A stretch of DNA of 42,708 bases from a phage, in the sequence record QB031384.1, one strand, 5' to 3'. Below, one piece after another: positions 26,019-36,080 of the stretch. A program made the position numbers and the translations under genes. The notes under the pieces are model-generated. The model had not been told where the DNA came from, did not search any database, and saw only the letters and a program-made list of their open reading frames with translations. Within the stretch, counting starts at the first letter, position 1, and every line of letters begins with the position of its first letter.

Positions 26019-26591
26019 TTACATTGCCCAATCAGGACGCTCACCCTTACCGCAGTAAAAGTCAATCAGGTCTAGTAAGCGCGGATAATACTTCAGCGAA
26101 CTCTTACCGTCCATTTCCGCAACCTGGCGCCTACTGAAGCTGCGCCACTCTGCTGCCGTATGCTGCTGACATCCTGCACGCACTATGTCCTTACAGATAC
26201 TAATGAAGTACGTTTCTCCGTATATAATGACAGTCTTGGCGCCGCGCAGGTCAGCGCGGCGCAGGTTAGCGCCGCGCAGGTCAGCGTAGCGCAGGTCAGC
26301 GTCGCGCAGGTCAGTACCGGTCAGGTCAGCGCCGCGCAGGTCAGCGATGCGCAGGTCAGCGTCGCGCAGGTCAGCGCCGCTCAGGTCAGCGCCGCGCAGG
26401 TCAGTACCGGTCAGGTCAGCGCCGCGCAGGTTAGCGTAGCGCAGGTTAGCGCCGCGCAGGTCAGCGTCGCGCAGGTCAGTGCTGCTCAGGTCAGCGTCGC
26501 ACAGGTCAGCGTCGCGCAGGTTAGCGCGGCGCAGGTCAACGCTGTGCAGTCTTCCTAACTTATATATTTCGCAGATTTCTTGATAGTTCAT
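26019..26591 (-). CDS. Pentapeptide-repeat protein 1 (about 21 tandem A(D/N)LxG-type pentapeptides plus 70-aa non-repeat C-terminal domain)
   Basis: 190-aa ORF with an unbroken run of [15 protein letters not shown] pentapeptides after the N-terminal cap [12 protein letters not shown]. Strand chosen because all flanking genes are minus-strand. Confidence 0.8.
26238..26549. repeat. Tandem array of about 21 copies of a 15-bp unit (CGCAGGTCAGCGNCG-like) encoding the pentapeptide repeats
   Basis: Periodicity is visible directly: gcgcaggtcagcg recurs every 15 bp, varying mainly at 2-3 positions per unit. Confidence 0.9.
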
Positions 26592-26678: not shown

Positions 26679-27182
26679 CTACTTCTCCACAACTTCATAC
26701 TCTCCATGATTAGGATGGAATCCATGTAACCGCTCGACAGCCTTTCTTGCTTTAACAGCAAGGGTAATATCTGTAAACAAGCCCAAGTGCATATAAATGC
26801 CATCTACCTTTATACGCGCACGCCACTTACCAGCATTCTTATCCCAGCCTACGCCGCATATGCCGCTGGTGTTGCTCGAGTGTAGCCTCATATTGCGGCT
26901 GTTAGTGCTTTGATTTACTAACCTTAGATTAATTAACCTATTATCATCTTTAATATGGTTAATATGGTCTATTTGCAAACCTGCCGGAATAGGTCCATTT
27001 ACCATCTCATAAATTATGCGATGTAATTTGTAAGTCTTACCCCTTACCATGACCTGCATGTAACCACGCTTGTTTAAGCAACCAGCTACCTCTCCTACCT
27101 TTGAAGCACTTCTAGGTAACCTAATCTTCCAAATCAAAGCCCCTGTATCTGGGCAGTAGTTGAATATACTATTCCAATCCAT
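26679..27182 (-). CDS. HNH homing endonuclease with AP2-like DNA-binding domain
   Basis: 167-aa ORF with HNH motif LQIDHINHIKDDNRLINLRLVNQSTNSRN and AP2-like GVGWDKNAGKWRARIKVDGIYMHLGLF. Second such gene in the genome. Confidence 0.7.
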   Translation of the reverse strand: MDWNSIFNYCPDTGALIWKIRLPRSASKVGEVAGCLNKRGYMQVMVRGKTYKLHRIIYEMVNGPIPAGLQIDHINHIKDDNRLINLRLVNQSTNSRNMRLHSSNTSGICGVGWDKNAGKWRARIKVDGIYMHLGLFTDITLAVKARKAVERLHGFHPNHGEYEVVEK

Positions 27183-27378: not shown

Positions 27379-27489
27379 ATTGAATCCTCTTAAGTCTGCA
27401 ACCTCACCGCGAAGTTGCTTAACTAAGAGACTTCCTTAGCGAGTCTTATTTCTCTTAGACTCTCATCTGCATCGCACTGTATTACCTGT

Positions 27490-27638
27490 GCACGGGAGGA
27501 ACCGCTCAAGCTCGTACTATCTACCCAGAGCTTTCAGGAGGGCACCGGGATTAAAGTCCCCGGTGACTAACAAGCCGCTTTGCTATCTGCATCTCGTCTT
27601 GATGAAATGAATTCTACAGCATTCTAAAACTGTGTCAA
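27490..27638 (-). promoter_or_regulatory. Promoter-leader cassette R1: sigma70-like promoter (TTGACA - 16 bp - TAGAAT) plus conserved structured 5' leader
   Basis: -35 at 27633-27638 and -10 at 27611-27616. Downstream leader contains a hairpin (CACCGGG/CCCGGTG), GCCCTCCTGAA, a second hairpin with loop GGGTAGATA, and GAGCGGTTCCTCCCGT. Homologous to copies at 34406-34528 and 35943-36080. Confidence 0.55.
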
Positions 27639-27650
27639 CACTTATTTTAA

Positions 27651-28838
27651 TTAAATTACCTCTTCCTCTTTAAAGGATTTACCAATACCACATTCGGCGG
27701 GAAACTTAACTTCAGACAGTATGCCAAAGTTAGGCCACAACTGTAGCATCCTATCACGGGCTCCTTCCATAACGTTTTTGATGAGCTTACCCGCCTTACG
27801 GGCCGTCTCTTCGTCAGCACAATCTATGTACAAACAGTCATGGACGGTAACCAGCAAACACCATTTACCCCCCATCCAATTGTCAGCTATACCAGCCCTC
27901 ATAGCCATTCCGGTTGCAATAAGCATAAGCAGGGAACCTGATCCTTGAAACGGATAGTTAGCCATCTCTGTGGGCTTAAAGTCCATTACCTGCTTACCTT
28001 CGCGCCACACCGGCTTCTGACGGAAGCGGTAGCGAGTACCGCAAGGCGTAGTGAAGTAGCCCTCGCGATAGATACGCCAGCTGCCGTCATCTGCTTGTTC
28101 ACGGCGTATAGGCTCCAGCAGCGCAGTACGGTTTACTTCAGCTGCAATGACATCCCTGTACTTAATAGACTCAGGGAATAGTGCCTCCTCGTTAGCTAAG
28201 AACTTCTCAGCGTCGGCTAAGCTAGCACCTGAGGCGAACGCCAGTCCTTTAGCGGATGCTCCATATTGTGCTGCGAAGCTGAAGGTTTTGATGGCTGTTC
28301 GCTTCTTCTTCCATCCTTTATGGTCCGGTGCATCCGGGTTATGGCAAAGCTCGTAGACTTCTTCATAAGGCATACCTTCTTGGAATGCTAGACGATAGCA
28401 GTGCATATCCGTACCGGCTTCAAGCAAGCTCAGTAATTTCTTATCACCAGTGATTACACAGCCCATTACAACCTCCATAGCTGAGTAGTCACACTGTGCA
28501 ATCATACCCTGCTCACCATAGCGGCTACGCAGAATCTGCTTAACCTTAGACTCACGCGGCAGCTGCTGCATGTTCGGGTTAGATGTTGACAGGCGTCCGG
28601 TAGTAGTTGAGCAGTGATTCGACCTGTGGTGAATGATGCCAGAACCATCTGCTGATGTAGGGATGACGTACGGCAGCATGCCCGTCACCTTACGCAGACT
28701 GCCATCCTTATTAGTCTCACGTACTTCATAGAAGCCGAGGTCCTTCTGGCGTGTAGTCATTTCTTTGTATGCTTTGAAGAAGTCTGAAGCTAACTTAGCC
28801 ATCTTGTTCCATCCCAATAAAATAATGTGCAAGGTCAT
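27651..28838 (-). CDS. DNA polymerase, family A: polymerase (fingers/palm) part
   Basis: 395-aa ORF with TGRLSTSNPNMQQLP, motif A-like CDYSAMEV, motif B-like RTAIKTFSFAAQYG and motif C VHD. Overlaps the upstream exonuclease-domain ORF by 44 nt in a different frame. Confidence 0.85.
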   Translation of the reverse strand: MTLHIILLGWNKMAKLASDFFKAYKEMTTRQKDLGFYEVRETNKDGSLRKVTGMLPYVIPTSADGSGIIHHRSNHCSTTTGRLSTSNPNMQQLPRESKVKQILRSRYGEQGMIAQCDYSAMEVVMGCVITGDKKLLSLLEAGTDMHCYRLAFQEGMPYEEVYELCHNPDAPDHKGWKKKRTAIKTFSFAAQYGASAKGLAFASGASLADAEKFLANEEALFPESIKYRDVIAAEVNRTALLEPIRREQADDGSWRIYREGYFTTPCGTRYRFRQKPVWREGKQVMDFKPTEMANYPFQGSGSLLMLIATGMAMRAGIADNWMGGKWCLLVTVHDCLYIDCADEETARKAGKLIKNVMEGARDRMLQLWPNFGILSEVKFPAECGIGKSFKEEEVI

Positions 28839-29940
28839 TCATTGCGTCCGTTCCTGTGCTGTACACAGGGCTACCATCCGCTAATGTTTGAGCACCTTTG
28901 TATTCACCGCGGTCTCCGTACTTCTCACGTAGAGACTGAGGTAGGTCCTGAATATTAACCAGCCCGTCGAAGCGGTACAGGCGTTCACCCCACTTCATAG
29001 CTTGCTCGTCAGTGTCTACTTTTATGAACTTAGGCATACCCTTATTACGCCCAGACTTATACACCCCGTCCTGTACTTCCTTCTTAATGTATTTAGGTGG
29101 GTCATAAGGAACCTTGCACTTGTACTTAACCATGCCACCATACACTAAAGCGGACATATGATAACCGCTATTCCAGTTAAACTCGAAGCCCTCTGGCAAT
29201 TCTGGCAAGAATGTCTGAAGTAACTCCCGCAGATTCCGAATAGCGTCCTCCTGCTCCTTCTGGTTTACGCGTGCTGTAGGCATATCAACGTACACGCCAT
29301 TGAACTCACAGTATGCCAGAGCTGCGACTGCCTCCATCCTTTCCCAGACCATAGGCATCTGTCCACGTTCCGCAAATACTGCGCATTGCCCGTAGAAGCA
29401 CAGCGCTGTGTTGACTATGTCACCGTTAGGCCCTGTTAAGTATTCATGTAGTAGCATAGGGTCAATGTCTGCTGTCAGAACCCCTTGCTGCCATAGTAGC
29501 TTAACGCCGTCGACTTTGTGTGACCCGCCATACTTAGGGGCAGTCTCATCTAGTGACGGGTAAAGATTCTGGAAGTCGCTGGCAATGTACTCGCCCTGCA
29601 TAGTATCAAAGACTCGACCTCCTCGTCTAAGGAACGACTCGAACTGCTCACGGGCAAAGGTCAGCGCCCAGCTAATCTCGTACGCTGCGTTGTGCGCTAC
29701 GATTAACCACGTATCATCCTGAATAGGTAGCCACTGCTTAGGGTCAGCTGCTAAGAAATCAGTTCGGGATTCATAGCGTACACTCTGCACCTCGCTGCAC
29801 TGTACAGTCCCATCCGGCATAGTCCTATCAATGCGGAAGCCTGATTCTACGATGTAGTTATCAGGGCAGTACGGAGTTGCGACCCCGCCGTAGTACGGAT
29901 GATTTTGAGTTTCAATATCCCAAATTAGAATGCTACTCAT
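28795..29940 (-). CDS. DNA polymerase, family A: N-terminal 3'-5' exonuclease part (separate frame from the polymerase part)
   Basis: Exo I motif WDIET near the N-terminus. The ORF track starts it at a TTG (29946); the ATG at 29940 overlaps the upstream small ORF's stop as ATGA. Ends 44 nt inside the polymerase-domain ORF. Confidence 0.8.
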   Translation of the reverse strand: MSSILIWDIETQNHPYYGGVATPYCPDNYIVESGFRIDRTMPDGTVQCSEVQSVRYESRTDFLAADPKQWLPIQDDTWLIVAHNAAYEISWALTFAREQFESFLRRGGRVFDTMQGEYIASDFQNLYPSLDETAPKYGGSHKVDGVKLLWQQGVLTADIDPMLLHEYLTGPNGDIVNTALCFYGQCAVFAERGQMPMVWERMEAVAALAYCEFNGVYVDMPTARVNQKEQEDAIRNLRELLQTFLPELPEGFEFNWNSGYHMSALVYGGMVKYKCKVPYDPPKYIKKEVQDGVYKSGRNKGMPKFIKVDTDEQAMKWGERLYRFDGLVNIQDLPQSLREKYGDRGEYKGAQTLADGSPVYSTGTDAMNDLAHYFIGMEQDG

Positions 29941-30089
29941 TTCCAATTACTCCGACGTGATTTATTAATGGCTGCCCGTACAATCATCTCGCTACTGTCC
30001 AGCGTGTAGCGCCTAACCTGCTTACGATTGTTAGCAATTGCTCTGATGACTTCGTAGTCTGCCTCAGTAATATCACTTTGCTTTAGCAT
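29937..30089 (-). CDS. Small basic ORF (50 aa), not in ORF track
   Basis: ATG at 30089-30087 preceded by GGTGAGGTG; stop overlaps the DNA polymerase ATG. Translation MLKQSDITEADYEVIRAIANNRKQVRRYTLDSSEMIVRAAINKSRRSNWK. Confidence 0.35.
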   Translation of the reverse strand: MLKQSDITEADYEVIRAIANNRKQVRRYTLDSSEMIVRAAINKSRRSNWK

Positions 30090-32813: not shown

Positions 32814-33350
32814 TTAGATACTAACCCAATCAGCGACGCGCAGGTCAGCGTCGCGCAGGTCAGTGCCGGTCAGGTCAGCGCCGCGCAGGTTAGCGCCGCG
32901 CAGGTTAGCGCCAATCAGGTTAGCGTCGCGCAGGTTAGCGCCGCTCAGGTCAGTGCCGCGCAGGTTAGCGCCGCGCAGGTTAGCGCCGTGCAGGTCAGCG
33001 CTGCGCAGGTCAGCGCCGCTCAGGTCAGCGCCGCTCAGGTCAGCGATGTTCAGGTCAGCGTAGCGCAGGTCAGCGCCGCGCAGGTCAGCGCCGCTCAGGT
33101 CAGCGCCGCGCAGGTTAGCGCCAATCAGGTTAGCGTCGCGCAGCTTAGCGTCGCTCAGGTCAGCGACGCGCAGGTCAGCGTCGCTCAGGTCAGCGTAGCG
33201 CAGGTCAGCGCCGCTCAGGTCAGCGCCGCGCAGGTCAGCGTCGAGCAGGTTAGCGCGGCGCAGGTCAGCGCCGCACAGGTCAGCGCCGCACAGGTCAGCG
33301 CCTTCCAAGGATTCTAACTTGTATTTATTACAGATATTGTCATAAGTCAT
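32814..33350 (-). CDS. Pentapeptide-repeat protein 2 (about 32 tandem pentapeptides; paralogue of 26019-26591)
   Basis: Unbroken A(D/N)L(R/S/C)G-type run that ends at the stop codon. Preferred start is the internal ATG at 33350 (GAGGT SD 8 nt upstream; cap MTYDNICNKYKL matches [12 protein letters not shown] of protein 1). The ORF track extends it to 33401. Confidence 0.8.
   Translation of the reverse strand: MTYDNICNKYKLESLEGADLCGADLCGADLRRANLLDADLRGADLSGADLRYADLSDADLRVADLSDAKLRDANLIGANLRGADLSGADLRGADLRYADLNIADLSGADLSGADLRSADLHGANLRGANLRGTDLSGANLRDANLIGANLRGANLRGADLTGTDLRDADLRVADWVSI
32827..33302. repeat. Tandem array of about 32 copies of the same 15-bp unit (CGCAGGTCAGCGNCG-like)
   Basis: Same 15-bp periodicity and unit sequence as the array at 26238-26549, on the same strand. 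Confidence 0.9.
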
Positions 33351-33360
33351 ATTAGTAACC

Positions 33361-33597
33361 TCAGTTAATTTTAATATTAAAACGTGCACAATACCCTTCA
33401 AGGGTCATCCCTACTTTAGCTGCTTTAAGACTGTAAGCTAACTTAAGAGCTTCCTTAGCGTCATGCTCACGAGCCAGCTTCTCAATCGTTACTTCATCAT
33501 TACGCATCAGAATCATTTCGGGGTTCCGGTTAATCATTTCTGCATCTCCAGTTTGAAAAGGGCCATTGCAGCGTTCCAGGCGAAACGCGGGTTGCAT
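33361..33597 (-). CDS. Hypothetical protein (78 aa)
   Basis: ORF-track ORF in the early/middle region. No motif recognised. Confidence 0.45.
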   Translation of the reverse strand: MQPAFRLERCNGPFQTGDAEMINRNPEMILMRNDEVTIEKLAREHDAKEALKLAYSLKAAKVGMTLEGYCARFNIKIN

Positions 33598-34312: not shown

Positions 34313-34405
34313 CTTAACTCCTTAGTGGTTTTATTAAAGCCCTCCGCAGAAGGCTTTGTAAAACTACTTTAGTTTCTTTCATCTCAGACCCACTGAATTA
34401 TCCGT

Positions 34406-34528
34406 GGACGGGAGGAACCGCTCGAGCCTGTTCTATCTACCCTAGGCTCTCAGAAGGGCAATCACTTAGCGTTGTTGATTAACGTCCTGCTATGAATCCA
34501 ACTATACTCCTATTTTATTTTGTGTCAA
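34406..34528 (-). promoter_or_regulatory. Promoter-leader cassette R2: sigma70-like promoter (TTGACA - 16 bp - TATAGT) plus conserved structured leader
   Basis: -35 at 34523-34528 and -10 at 34501-34506. Leader has a hairpin (AATCA/TGATT), GCCCTTCTGA, a GAGCC/GGCTC stem around GGGTAGATA, and GAGCGGTTCCTCCCGT. Confidence 0.55.
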
Positions 34529-35882: not shown

Positions 35883-35942
35883 CTTAGCGAAGCTCTTGTC
35901 TCTTCAATCTAGTGAGCTTCTCATCTATTCCCTCTGTATAAC

Positions 35943-36080
35943 CCGAGGACGCTAGGTAACGCTCAGAACCTGTTTATCTACCCCGATTCTTCAGGAGGGC
36001 AGCGGCTTTATGTTATCCGCTAACGTCTTGCTTATGTCTTGCTATGTGATGAAGTATACGCTTCAAAACAGGTAAGTCAA
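35943..36080 (-). promoter_or_regulatory. Promoter-leader cassette R3: sigma70-like promoter (TTGACT - 16 bp - TATACT) plus conserved structured leader
   Basis: -35 at 36075-36080 and -10 at 36053-36058. Leader has a hairpin (AGCGG/CCGCT), GCCCTCCTGAA, an AGAAUC/GGUUCU stem (one G-U pair) around GGGTAGATA, and a diverged GAGCG...CCUC segment. Confidence 0.55.

Follow-up and report, generated by a model that had tools for sequence, protein, structure and literature searches.

A pseudoknot-containing leader RNA family linked to host-type promoters in Slopekvirinae phages

Introduction

Why would a phage set the same structured leader behind several promoters of the type read by its host's RNA polymerase, and what could such a leader do there? 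The question is raised by the window, the whole 42,708 nt stretch of sequence record QB031384.1 analysed here, whose minus strand carries every long ORF. BLAST assigns it to an Escherichia coli podophage of the Autographiviridae, subfamily Slopekvirinae, with 98.6% identity to Escherichia phage vB_EcoP_P64441 and about 80% to vB_EcoP_PAS7 (PAS7 below). The record is circularly permuted, its physical left end and first promoter lying near 37400-37000; the gene order then runs through early and DNA-metabolism genes to the phage RNA polymerase gene (21032-18582, PAS7 annotation) and on to the structural genes. Because the RNA polymerase gene stands at the far end of the early/middle block, the host polymerase must, judging from gene order, cover many kilobases.

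Some other features of this region deserve mention. The DNA polymerase is split between overlapping ORFs (28795-29946 and 27651-28838, minus strand), as in the PAS7 annotation, and HNH endonuclease genes lie nearby (26679-27182). Two pentapeptide-repeat proteins (26019-26591 and 32814-33401, minus strand; PF00805, E = 3e-37 and 8e-58), made of 15-nt tandem repeats of the ADLRG type, are possible DNA mimics; their homologous region in PAS7 carries the wrong-strand annotation 'modular polyketide synthase'.

Results

The three leaders emerged from a repeat finder and a reading of the minus strand, which located the promoter-plus-leader copies just where the original prediction had placed them. 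They form repeat family D2, with three 85-nt copies of 62-78% identity (R1, 27460-27544; R2, 34376-34460; R3, 35917-36001), in which GGGTAGATA recurs exactly at 27518-27526, 34434-34442 and 35975-35983. A near-consensus sigma70 promoter with a 16-bp spacer had been claimed for each copy, and a sigma70 consensus scan of 21-38 kb of the window bears this out: the top three minus-strand matches are exactly the promoters upstream of the repeats, all with 16-nt spacers. Since the number of promoter-like matches in this region is at chance level, the weight falls on the coincidence of rank and position. The R1 promoter (27638-27611, minus strand; -35 box 27638-27633, -10 box 27616-27611) reads TTGACA-16-TAGAAT, matches the consensus at 11 of 12 positions and is preceded by the A/T-rich tract AATTTAATTAAAATAAGTG. 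Those of R2 (34528-34501, TTGACA-16-TATAGT, 11 of 12) and R3 (36080-36053, TTGACT-16-TATACT, 10 of 12) lie on the same strand. The conserved leader, beginning GCCC, starts 42-68 nt past the -10 box, in agreement with the 40-70 nt proposed. We regard the three regions as copies of one portable expression cassette, in which an A/T-rich tract leads into a strong sigma70 promoter and this into a structured leader RNA of about 220 nt, about 90 nt of it core.

A separate 25-nt repeat, TAT(T/A)AATAGTGCGAG(A/T)TTTTACTAC, occurs on the minus strand directly upstream of the R3 promoter (36132-36108) and directly before the first early gene (36949-36925), with a weaker copy at 16689-16665; it may be a phage-RNAP promoter or some other signal.

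The core of the leader is an H-type pseudoknot, built from helix S1, loop L1 with the motif (G/C)CUGA, helix S2 and an A-rich loop L3, and followed by hairpins H3 and H4. The second hairpin of the original prediction is real and corresponds to the covarying S2, but its 'invariant loop' GGGUAGAUA holds the 3' strand of S1; the GCCC of GCCCUCCUGAA pairs with the GGGU of that loop and so makes the pseudoknot. Similarly, the C-rich block GAGCGGUUCCUCCCGU is in fact a 4-bp hairpin, H3. Thus promoter and covarying leader had been recognised, whereas the pseudoknot, H3, a covarying H4 and a structured tail had been missed, and the element, assigned to 27490-27638, continues well past 27490 to the start codon at 27378-27376.

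In R1 (minus strand throughout), H1 occupies 27565-27543 (CACCGGG gacuuuaau CCCGGUG) and its stem covaries between copies, with four of five pairs changing on both sides. The pseudoknot follows at 27543-27509: GCCC (27543-27540) pairs with GGGU (27526-27523) in S1, AGCUC (27532-27528) pairs with GAGCU (27513-27509) in S2, which covaries within the window lineage, and a single U links S2 to the 3' strand of S1. Its loops are UCCUGAA (L1) and AGAUAGUAC (L3), and a UGA junction precedes H3 (27505-27492), whose GCGG uuccuc CCGU covaries with GCGU uaccua GCGU; H4 is GCAC agguaauaca GUGC (27491-27474). R2 matches this plan up to and including H4, after which its tail differs, and R3 has the layout of R1 throughout. 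In R2 (minus strand), H1 (34480-34460, AAUCA acaacgcuaag UGAUU) is followed by a pseudoknot at 34459-34425, scored at 77.6 bits by the covariance model, with GCCC (34459-34456) and GGGU (34442-34439) in S1 and AGCCU (34448-34444) and AGGCU (34429-34425) in S2, then by H3 (34421-34408) and H4 (34407-34390, CCAC ggauaauuca GUGG). In R3, likewise on the minus strand, H1 lies at 36021-36001 (AGCGG auaacauaaag CCGCU) and the pseudoknot at 36000-35966 (64.6 bits), with GCCC (36000-35997) and GGGU (35983-35980) in S1 and GAAUC (35989-35985) and GGUUC (35970-35966) in S2; H3 (35962-35949, GCGU uaccua GCGU) and H4 (35948-35931) complete the core.

The compensatory stem changes noted at the outset stand up in every alignment. 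In nine copies from the window, PAS7 and two IMG/VR contigs (alignment A2, MAFFT), 99% of cells pair and 13 pairs change on both sides, a result matched by none of 500 shuffles and approached by slid partners only to 41% at most. S1 is invariant in the window lineage, so outgroups were needed to test it. Among seven Koutsourovirus copies (A3, MAFFT) pairing in S1 reaches 94%, with double-sided changes at two of its pairs; in a broad MAFFT alignment of 29 sequences (A4) it is 87.6% paired with all five pairs covarying, alongside S2 at 98.3% with six of six. Finally, 48 distinct sequences were aligned to a covariance model (A5), and since that model is built without S1, the S1 pairing there is not fitted: it reaches 90.4%, again with double-sided changes in all five pairs. 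Over the whole structure, 95.6% of the cells in A5 pair, compared with 67.6% after shuffling and at most 51% with slid partners, and 16 of 19 pairs show double-sided changes. Covariation therefore does not hang on one procedure, as it holds on structure-agnostic MAFFT alignments as well as on the model-based one; these counts were used in place of a helix permutation test on hand-segmented helices, which is biased by the choice of helices. Thermodynamics contribute little to the case, with MFE z-scores of -0.81 for the R1 leader (unexceptional), -2.6 for R3 and -3.6 for KP34. The leader is a real, well-supported structured RNA family.

Could the conserved block instead act as DNA, for example as a protein-binding site or an origin, with the RNA structure incidental? 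The cassette does include promoter DNA, and the stretch between R3 and R2 encodes a DNA-binding (KilAC/Ant-like) protein. Yet the stems vary while staying paired, the double-sided changes are those just described, and the orientation is always that of transcription. Moreover, G-U pairs are frequent (H3 pair 83-104 is G-U in 38 of 48 sequences) and would be C-A mismatches on the opposite strand, which shows that the transcribed strand is the one that folds. The covariation thus makes a DNA-level role very improbable.

How far does the family reach? The original prediction had staked itself on conservation in related phages, and covariance-model searches did find the element there. A first model picked up the Koutsourovirus phages KKP 3828 and phiKDA1, whose diverged copies show the same topology built from other S1 and S2 sequences. 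A second model returned exactly three copies in the window (64-78 bits), three in PAS7, one per complete Koutsourovirus genome and one per Drulisvirus-type locus. Scanning for the H4 motif led to about 40 further phage contigs; IMG/VR retrieval through the neighbouring DNA polymerase gave two close relatives only, and of 73 metagenome loci found with the tail pattern, three contain the element (L031, L045 and L080), the rest being chance-like. Members of the family occur in Drulisvirus (KP34), Koutsourovirus and the window's genus, usually with one copy per genome; KP34 carries its copy in the 5' UTR of gene 1, behind the one sigma70 promoter annotated in that phage. Close relatives of the window phage (ECO104 4-5-2, contigs L010/L080 and L031) have three cassettes as well, but with a rewired core, which we call E-type, where GGC and GCC enclose a local 6-bp nested hairpin while L1 (AnCUGAAG) and L3 (UACAAGGAAG) are retained; this variant is 96.6% paired on its own alignment.

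Beyond these phages, searches came back empty. Rfam gives no match at the gathering threshold across the window, and only noise at E values up to 10 for R1, R2, R3 and the phiKDA1 leader. A host origin of the sequence was rejected, as 5,426 E. coli genomes gave no match. Among 100,044 bacterial and archaeal species, each represented by one genome, there was no bona fide copy: all nine pattern matches are chance, the best of them lying inside a Psychrobacter ORF and lacking S1 pairing. Literature searches did not turn up a description of the element. Other identities were considered and set aside. No tRNA or tmRNA-like gene was found; a hammerhead or box C/D-like reading of CUGA...GAUGA does not fit the core and has no Rfam match; and a likeness to lambda boxB (GCCCU/AGGGC) appears in some members only and is a coincidence, given that S1 covaries freely.

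The pattern of invariant unpaired core nucleotides (L1, L3 and the junction), variable stems and swappable platforms is a classic one for riboswitches, and it brings up an aptamer that binds a small molecule, reporting the physiological or defence state of the host, and gates early expression through lineage-specific platforms. Several known aptamers, among them those of the SAM-II and preQ1-II riboswitches, are H-type pseudoknots with A-rich loops. Like SAM-II, preQ1-II and guanidine-III aptamers, the element is a compact pseudoknot with conserved loop nucleotides and variable platforms, and its A-rich loop likely lies in a helix groove as theirs does. Unlike them, it is found in phages only, matches no Rfam riboswitch or other family and lacks a strictly conserved topology. 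The E-type rewiring would hardly be tolerable for a tight ligand pocket, neither a terminator nor a clear switching helix overlaps the core, and the 100,044 species offer no bona fide copy; a riboswitch of this kind is accordingly improbable. We also think it quite unlikely that the core is a phage-specific aptamer of a broader sort, a riboswitch or RNAP-binding RNA of a new structural class that would gate or boost all early expression by the host polymerase in answer to a host signal, again through lineage-specific platforms.

If the genes and genomes vary, what does the module stay with? In 51 of 54 distinct contexts a promoter of the form TTGACN-N15-18-TANNNT lies within 350 nt upstream, while the distance from core to -10 box ranges from 25 to 260 nt and the distance to the next start codon varies too. 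The downstream genes differ by copy and by phage, including small proteins without assignment, an HNH endonuclease and others, and a single core is joined to three unrelated tails. The module, conserved across Slopekvirinae phages, is thus tied to host-type promoters and to no particular downstream gene. Because it travels with the promoter through varied genes, distances and tails, its role should be sought at the level of the transcription unit.

Promoter arrangements around the element show some variety. In PAS7 (L001 810-1093) 253 nt separate an R3-type promoter, TTGACTTACCTGTTTTGTAGAGGTATAGT, from the pseudoknot downstream of it, and a small ORF is annotated in this interval (875-1045), so the leader tolerates insertion there. 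Tandem sigma70 promoters are common at R1-equivalent and Koutsourovirus loci (L001 10225-10380; L002; L012 5493-5608; L005 1878-2010; L007/L009/L013). The first of the tandem promoters has a conserved leader of its own, CAUCRAnGAGGCAnGGAGCC..CCGG.AACGG..AGUAGCG..CAUACGAA, which in some contigs has a boxA within it; R1 of the window is without this first promoter and leader unit. The LIMElight contig (L091 1104-1260) shares its promoter and initial transcribed sequence with Koutsourovirus P-b (CTTGACAAGT...AACTTAGATAGCAAGCAA) and has a possible compact pseudoknot, GUGU-U-CCCG-ACAC-GUUAAUCA-CGGG followed by CGAACG, to which the covariance model gives no match.

Transcription from the strongest promoters as soon as infection begins, with three copies in the window lineage, would also suit a stability, processing or decoy RNA, that is, a leader that keeps RNase E or other nucleases off the 5' part of the mRNA, or an abundant small RNA that titrates a host protein. 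Small RNAs derived from 5' UTRs are common in virulent phages (PMC10914365), and the compact fold of stacked helices persists in the E-type despite its rewiring. However, nothing anchors the element at the 5' end, as the 25-260 nt to the -10 box and the ORF interposed in PAS7 make plain; past H4 there is neither a terminator nor an obvious processing signal; and simple protection does not explain loops of invariant sequence. RNA processing had been among the roles first suggested, but the core, with helices of 4-7 bp, contains no RNase III-like long duplex; such sites are imperfect duplexes with an internal loop and at least about 20 bp, a length that only the predicted R1/R3 tail hairpin approaches. 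We consider this explanation unlikely.

In R1 (minus strand) H4 is followed by a putative mini-ORF, AUG AGA GUC UAA (27466-27455; conserved as AGAUGAGA). The 3' strand of H4, which resembles a Shine-Dalgarno (SD) sequence, lies 5-9 nt before a conserved AUG. This 3-codon AUGAGA mini-ORF (AUG AGA NNN stop) recurs in most R1/R3-type copies of relatives, and 15-16-codon versions in phiKDA1, Entb_48 and one ECO104 copy stop inside CUUAG/UUAAG. The R1 tail (27462-27376) continues with H5 (27462-27441), GCUAAG, H6 (27439-27423, CUAAG..CUUAG), UUAAG and H7 (27418-27398) to the SD UUAAGAGG (27393-27386) of the gene that starts at 27378-27376. In R3, on the same strand, the corresponding features are the mini-ORF (35924-35904), H5 (35920-35889), H6 (35887-35873), H7 (35867-35849), the SD UUAAAGG (35843-35837) and a probable start codon at 35828-35826. 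The stems of H5 and H7 differ between copies in a compensatory manner. The predicted MFE fold of R1 hides the SD in a long hairpin (CUCUUAGUU : ACUUAAGAG), and that of R3 likewise. The predicted 5' end of the R3 transcript (GCAAGACAUA; 36045-36036) is also complementary to its start-codon region, UAUGUCU..GC (35832-35820), a pairing present in the MFE fold and absent from R1. The R2 tail (34382-34310, minus strand) instead contains a putative uORF of 22 codons (34382-34314) with a 9-bp hairpin (34357-34336; next bases AAUAAAA), whose UAA stands one base before the next start codon (34312-34310), with the SD AAGGAG upstream; in PAS7 and L003 this uORF has 19 codons owing to an in-frame 9-nt indel. 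A terminator scan, serving as attenuator test, found no terminator-like site in the three leaders.

Such tails invite the reading that the leader is a translational operator or enhancer, in which a host or phage RNA-binding protein or the ribosome recognises the pseudoknot and initiation at the first cistron is controlled through the tail. The tail has two alternative predicted pairings, CUUAGUU:AAUUAAG, which hides the SD, and H6 (CUAAG:CUUAG), which exposes it; the mini-ORF may sway the choice, and in the MFE folds of R1 and R3 it is the buried state that appears. The CUAAG, CUUAG and UUAAG motifs are invariant, which also means that neither alternative pairing can gain support from covariation. 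The placing of the SD-like H4 strand before the AUG, the long uORFs that end inside CUUAG/UUAAG and the R2 stop codon adjoining the next start all fit this reading. There is a precedent, too: in phage T4 a leader pseudoknot 67 nt upstream of the AUG of gene 32 nucleates binding over UUAA(A) repeats and, with these repeats, can be a translational operator (PMC3014915). On the other hand, the three tails are unrelated, the distance to the start codon varies, and the KKP3828, L008 and Drulisvirus copies have no AUGAGA mini-ORF. Nor are the downstream genes conserved, which makes autoregulation by a downstream product unlikely. On balance we see translational control as possible but doubtful.

What, then, of transcription itself? 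The leftmost early promoter of the window (37034-36978, minus strand) reads TTGATG-17-TATTAT and has an extended -10 TG. A perfect rrn-type boxA, GTTCTTTAACA(ATC), follows it after about 15 nt, at 36991-36981, and is the sole match in the window to a consensus given as GYTCTTTAANA (PMC5725501). It is conserved as (T/A/C)GCTCTTTAACAATC in L003, L010/L080 and L012 and lies between the tandem promoters of Koutsourovirus-type contigs. In all, 12 of 54 loci have a boxA, on the same strand and always upstream of the pseudoknot; the R1-R3 leaders themselves lack the consensus. The boxA after the leftmost promoter suggests Nus-factor antitermination in a virulent phage of the T7 supergroup, and together with the 12 loci it indicates that this phage group already uses control of elongation by host machinery. 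The need for it is less easily read from the genomes: terminator scans downstream in the window, KP34 and phiKDA1 found no convincing intrinsic terminators, their counts being at chance, so that any need for antitermination rests on Rho-dependent events, which are unpredictable.

Discussion

We tentatively prefer the possibility that the leader is a cis-acting RNA that alters elongation by the host RNA polymerase, following the logic of the put elements of phage HK022, or of boxA/Nus on rrn operons, with a fold unrelated to theirs. The nascent pseudoknot module would act in cis on the very polymerase molecule that has just made it, directly or through a host elongation factor, and elongation through the long early/middle operons would become faster or resistant to Rho-dependent termination. 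The variable tails would then set translation initiation at the first gene, through the SD-burying hairpin and mini-ORF in R1 and R3 and the uORF coupled to the next gene in R2. In KP34 a single strong promoter serves at least 14 kb; the long block that host polymerase has to cross and the boxA of this phage group are the circumstantial grounds on which we place this reading first.

A put-like role had been among the original suggestions, and the likeness holds for position and number: HK022 put RNAs, factor-independent processive antiterminators of about 70 nt, occur in several copies downstream of early promoters at variable distance (PMC9378689). Like putL and putR, the leader is phage-encoded, shares its sequence among more than one copy per genome (in the window, several copies downstream of early host-RNAP promoters) and follows early sigma70 promoters. 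Its promoter distance also varies, its structure is compact at about 70-90 nt, as for put (PMC9378689), and its action is proposed to be in cis. Membership by sequence or structure was not borne out: the covariance model of the element finds nothing in the complete HK022 genome, its best hit there reaching 6.2 bits (E = 6.3) and lying in a tail gene. Unlike our element, put consists of two long stem-loops and a triplex, without a pseudoknot, and it has defined downstream terminators and genetic links to the zinc-binding domain of beta'. Since the leader is not a put homologue and has no standout terminators downstream, our hold on the elongation reading stays loose. Two further observations weigh against it: in some Koutsourovirus contigs boxA and pseudoknot stand in series on one transcript, where they would be redundant, and the R1 and R3 tails resemble translational devices.

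Other systems resemble the leader in part. The boxA/nut and rrn signals, which bind NusB-NusE, are also RNA signals placed directly after a promoter, and boxA acts on host RNAP; boxA is, however, a linear motif of 11-12 nt and not a fold. The structured EAR (eps-associated RNA) of Bacillus, located in a leader or inside an operon, favours transcription past terminators far down a long operon. It belongs to an Rfam family without a match here, to another host group and to another fold. Like our element, the gene 32 operator of T4, T2 and RB69 places an H-type pseudoknot in the 5' leader of a phage mRNA, some tens of nucleotides ahead of the start codon, with repeated UUAA-like motifs that reach the ribosome-binding site (PMC3014915). 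That operator is autoregulatory and serves one gene, whereas the cassettes are tied to promoters and head different genes, which received no Pfam or SSB assignment.

The kind of element is therefore already known, a cis-acting leader RNA after phage early promoters, while its fold and family are new and apparently undescribed. Most plausibly it governs either how host RNA polymerase elongates or how early genes are translated; RNA-based control of one or the other is suggested by the pseudoknot and, in some lineages, by an rrn-type boxA as well. The Slopekvirinae comprise the KP34-like Klebsiella phages and related phages of E. coli, Enterobacter and Salmonella, widely isolated for therapy. 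In these phages host polymerase drives 15-17 kb of early and middle genes, and the promoter-linked pseudoknot provides a mutable handle on how this is done. Should it prove to be a factor-independent modifier of RNA polymerase, it would rank as just the second such structural class, put being the first; should it be an operator that binds a ligand or protein, it would be a new phage regulatory RNA. Either way, a candidate new RNA family has come to light, and expression cassettes gain a compact part.
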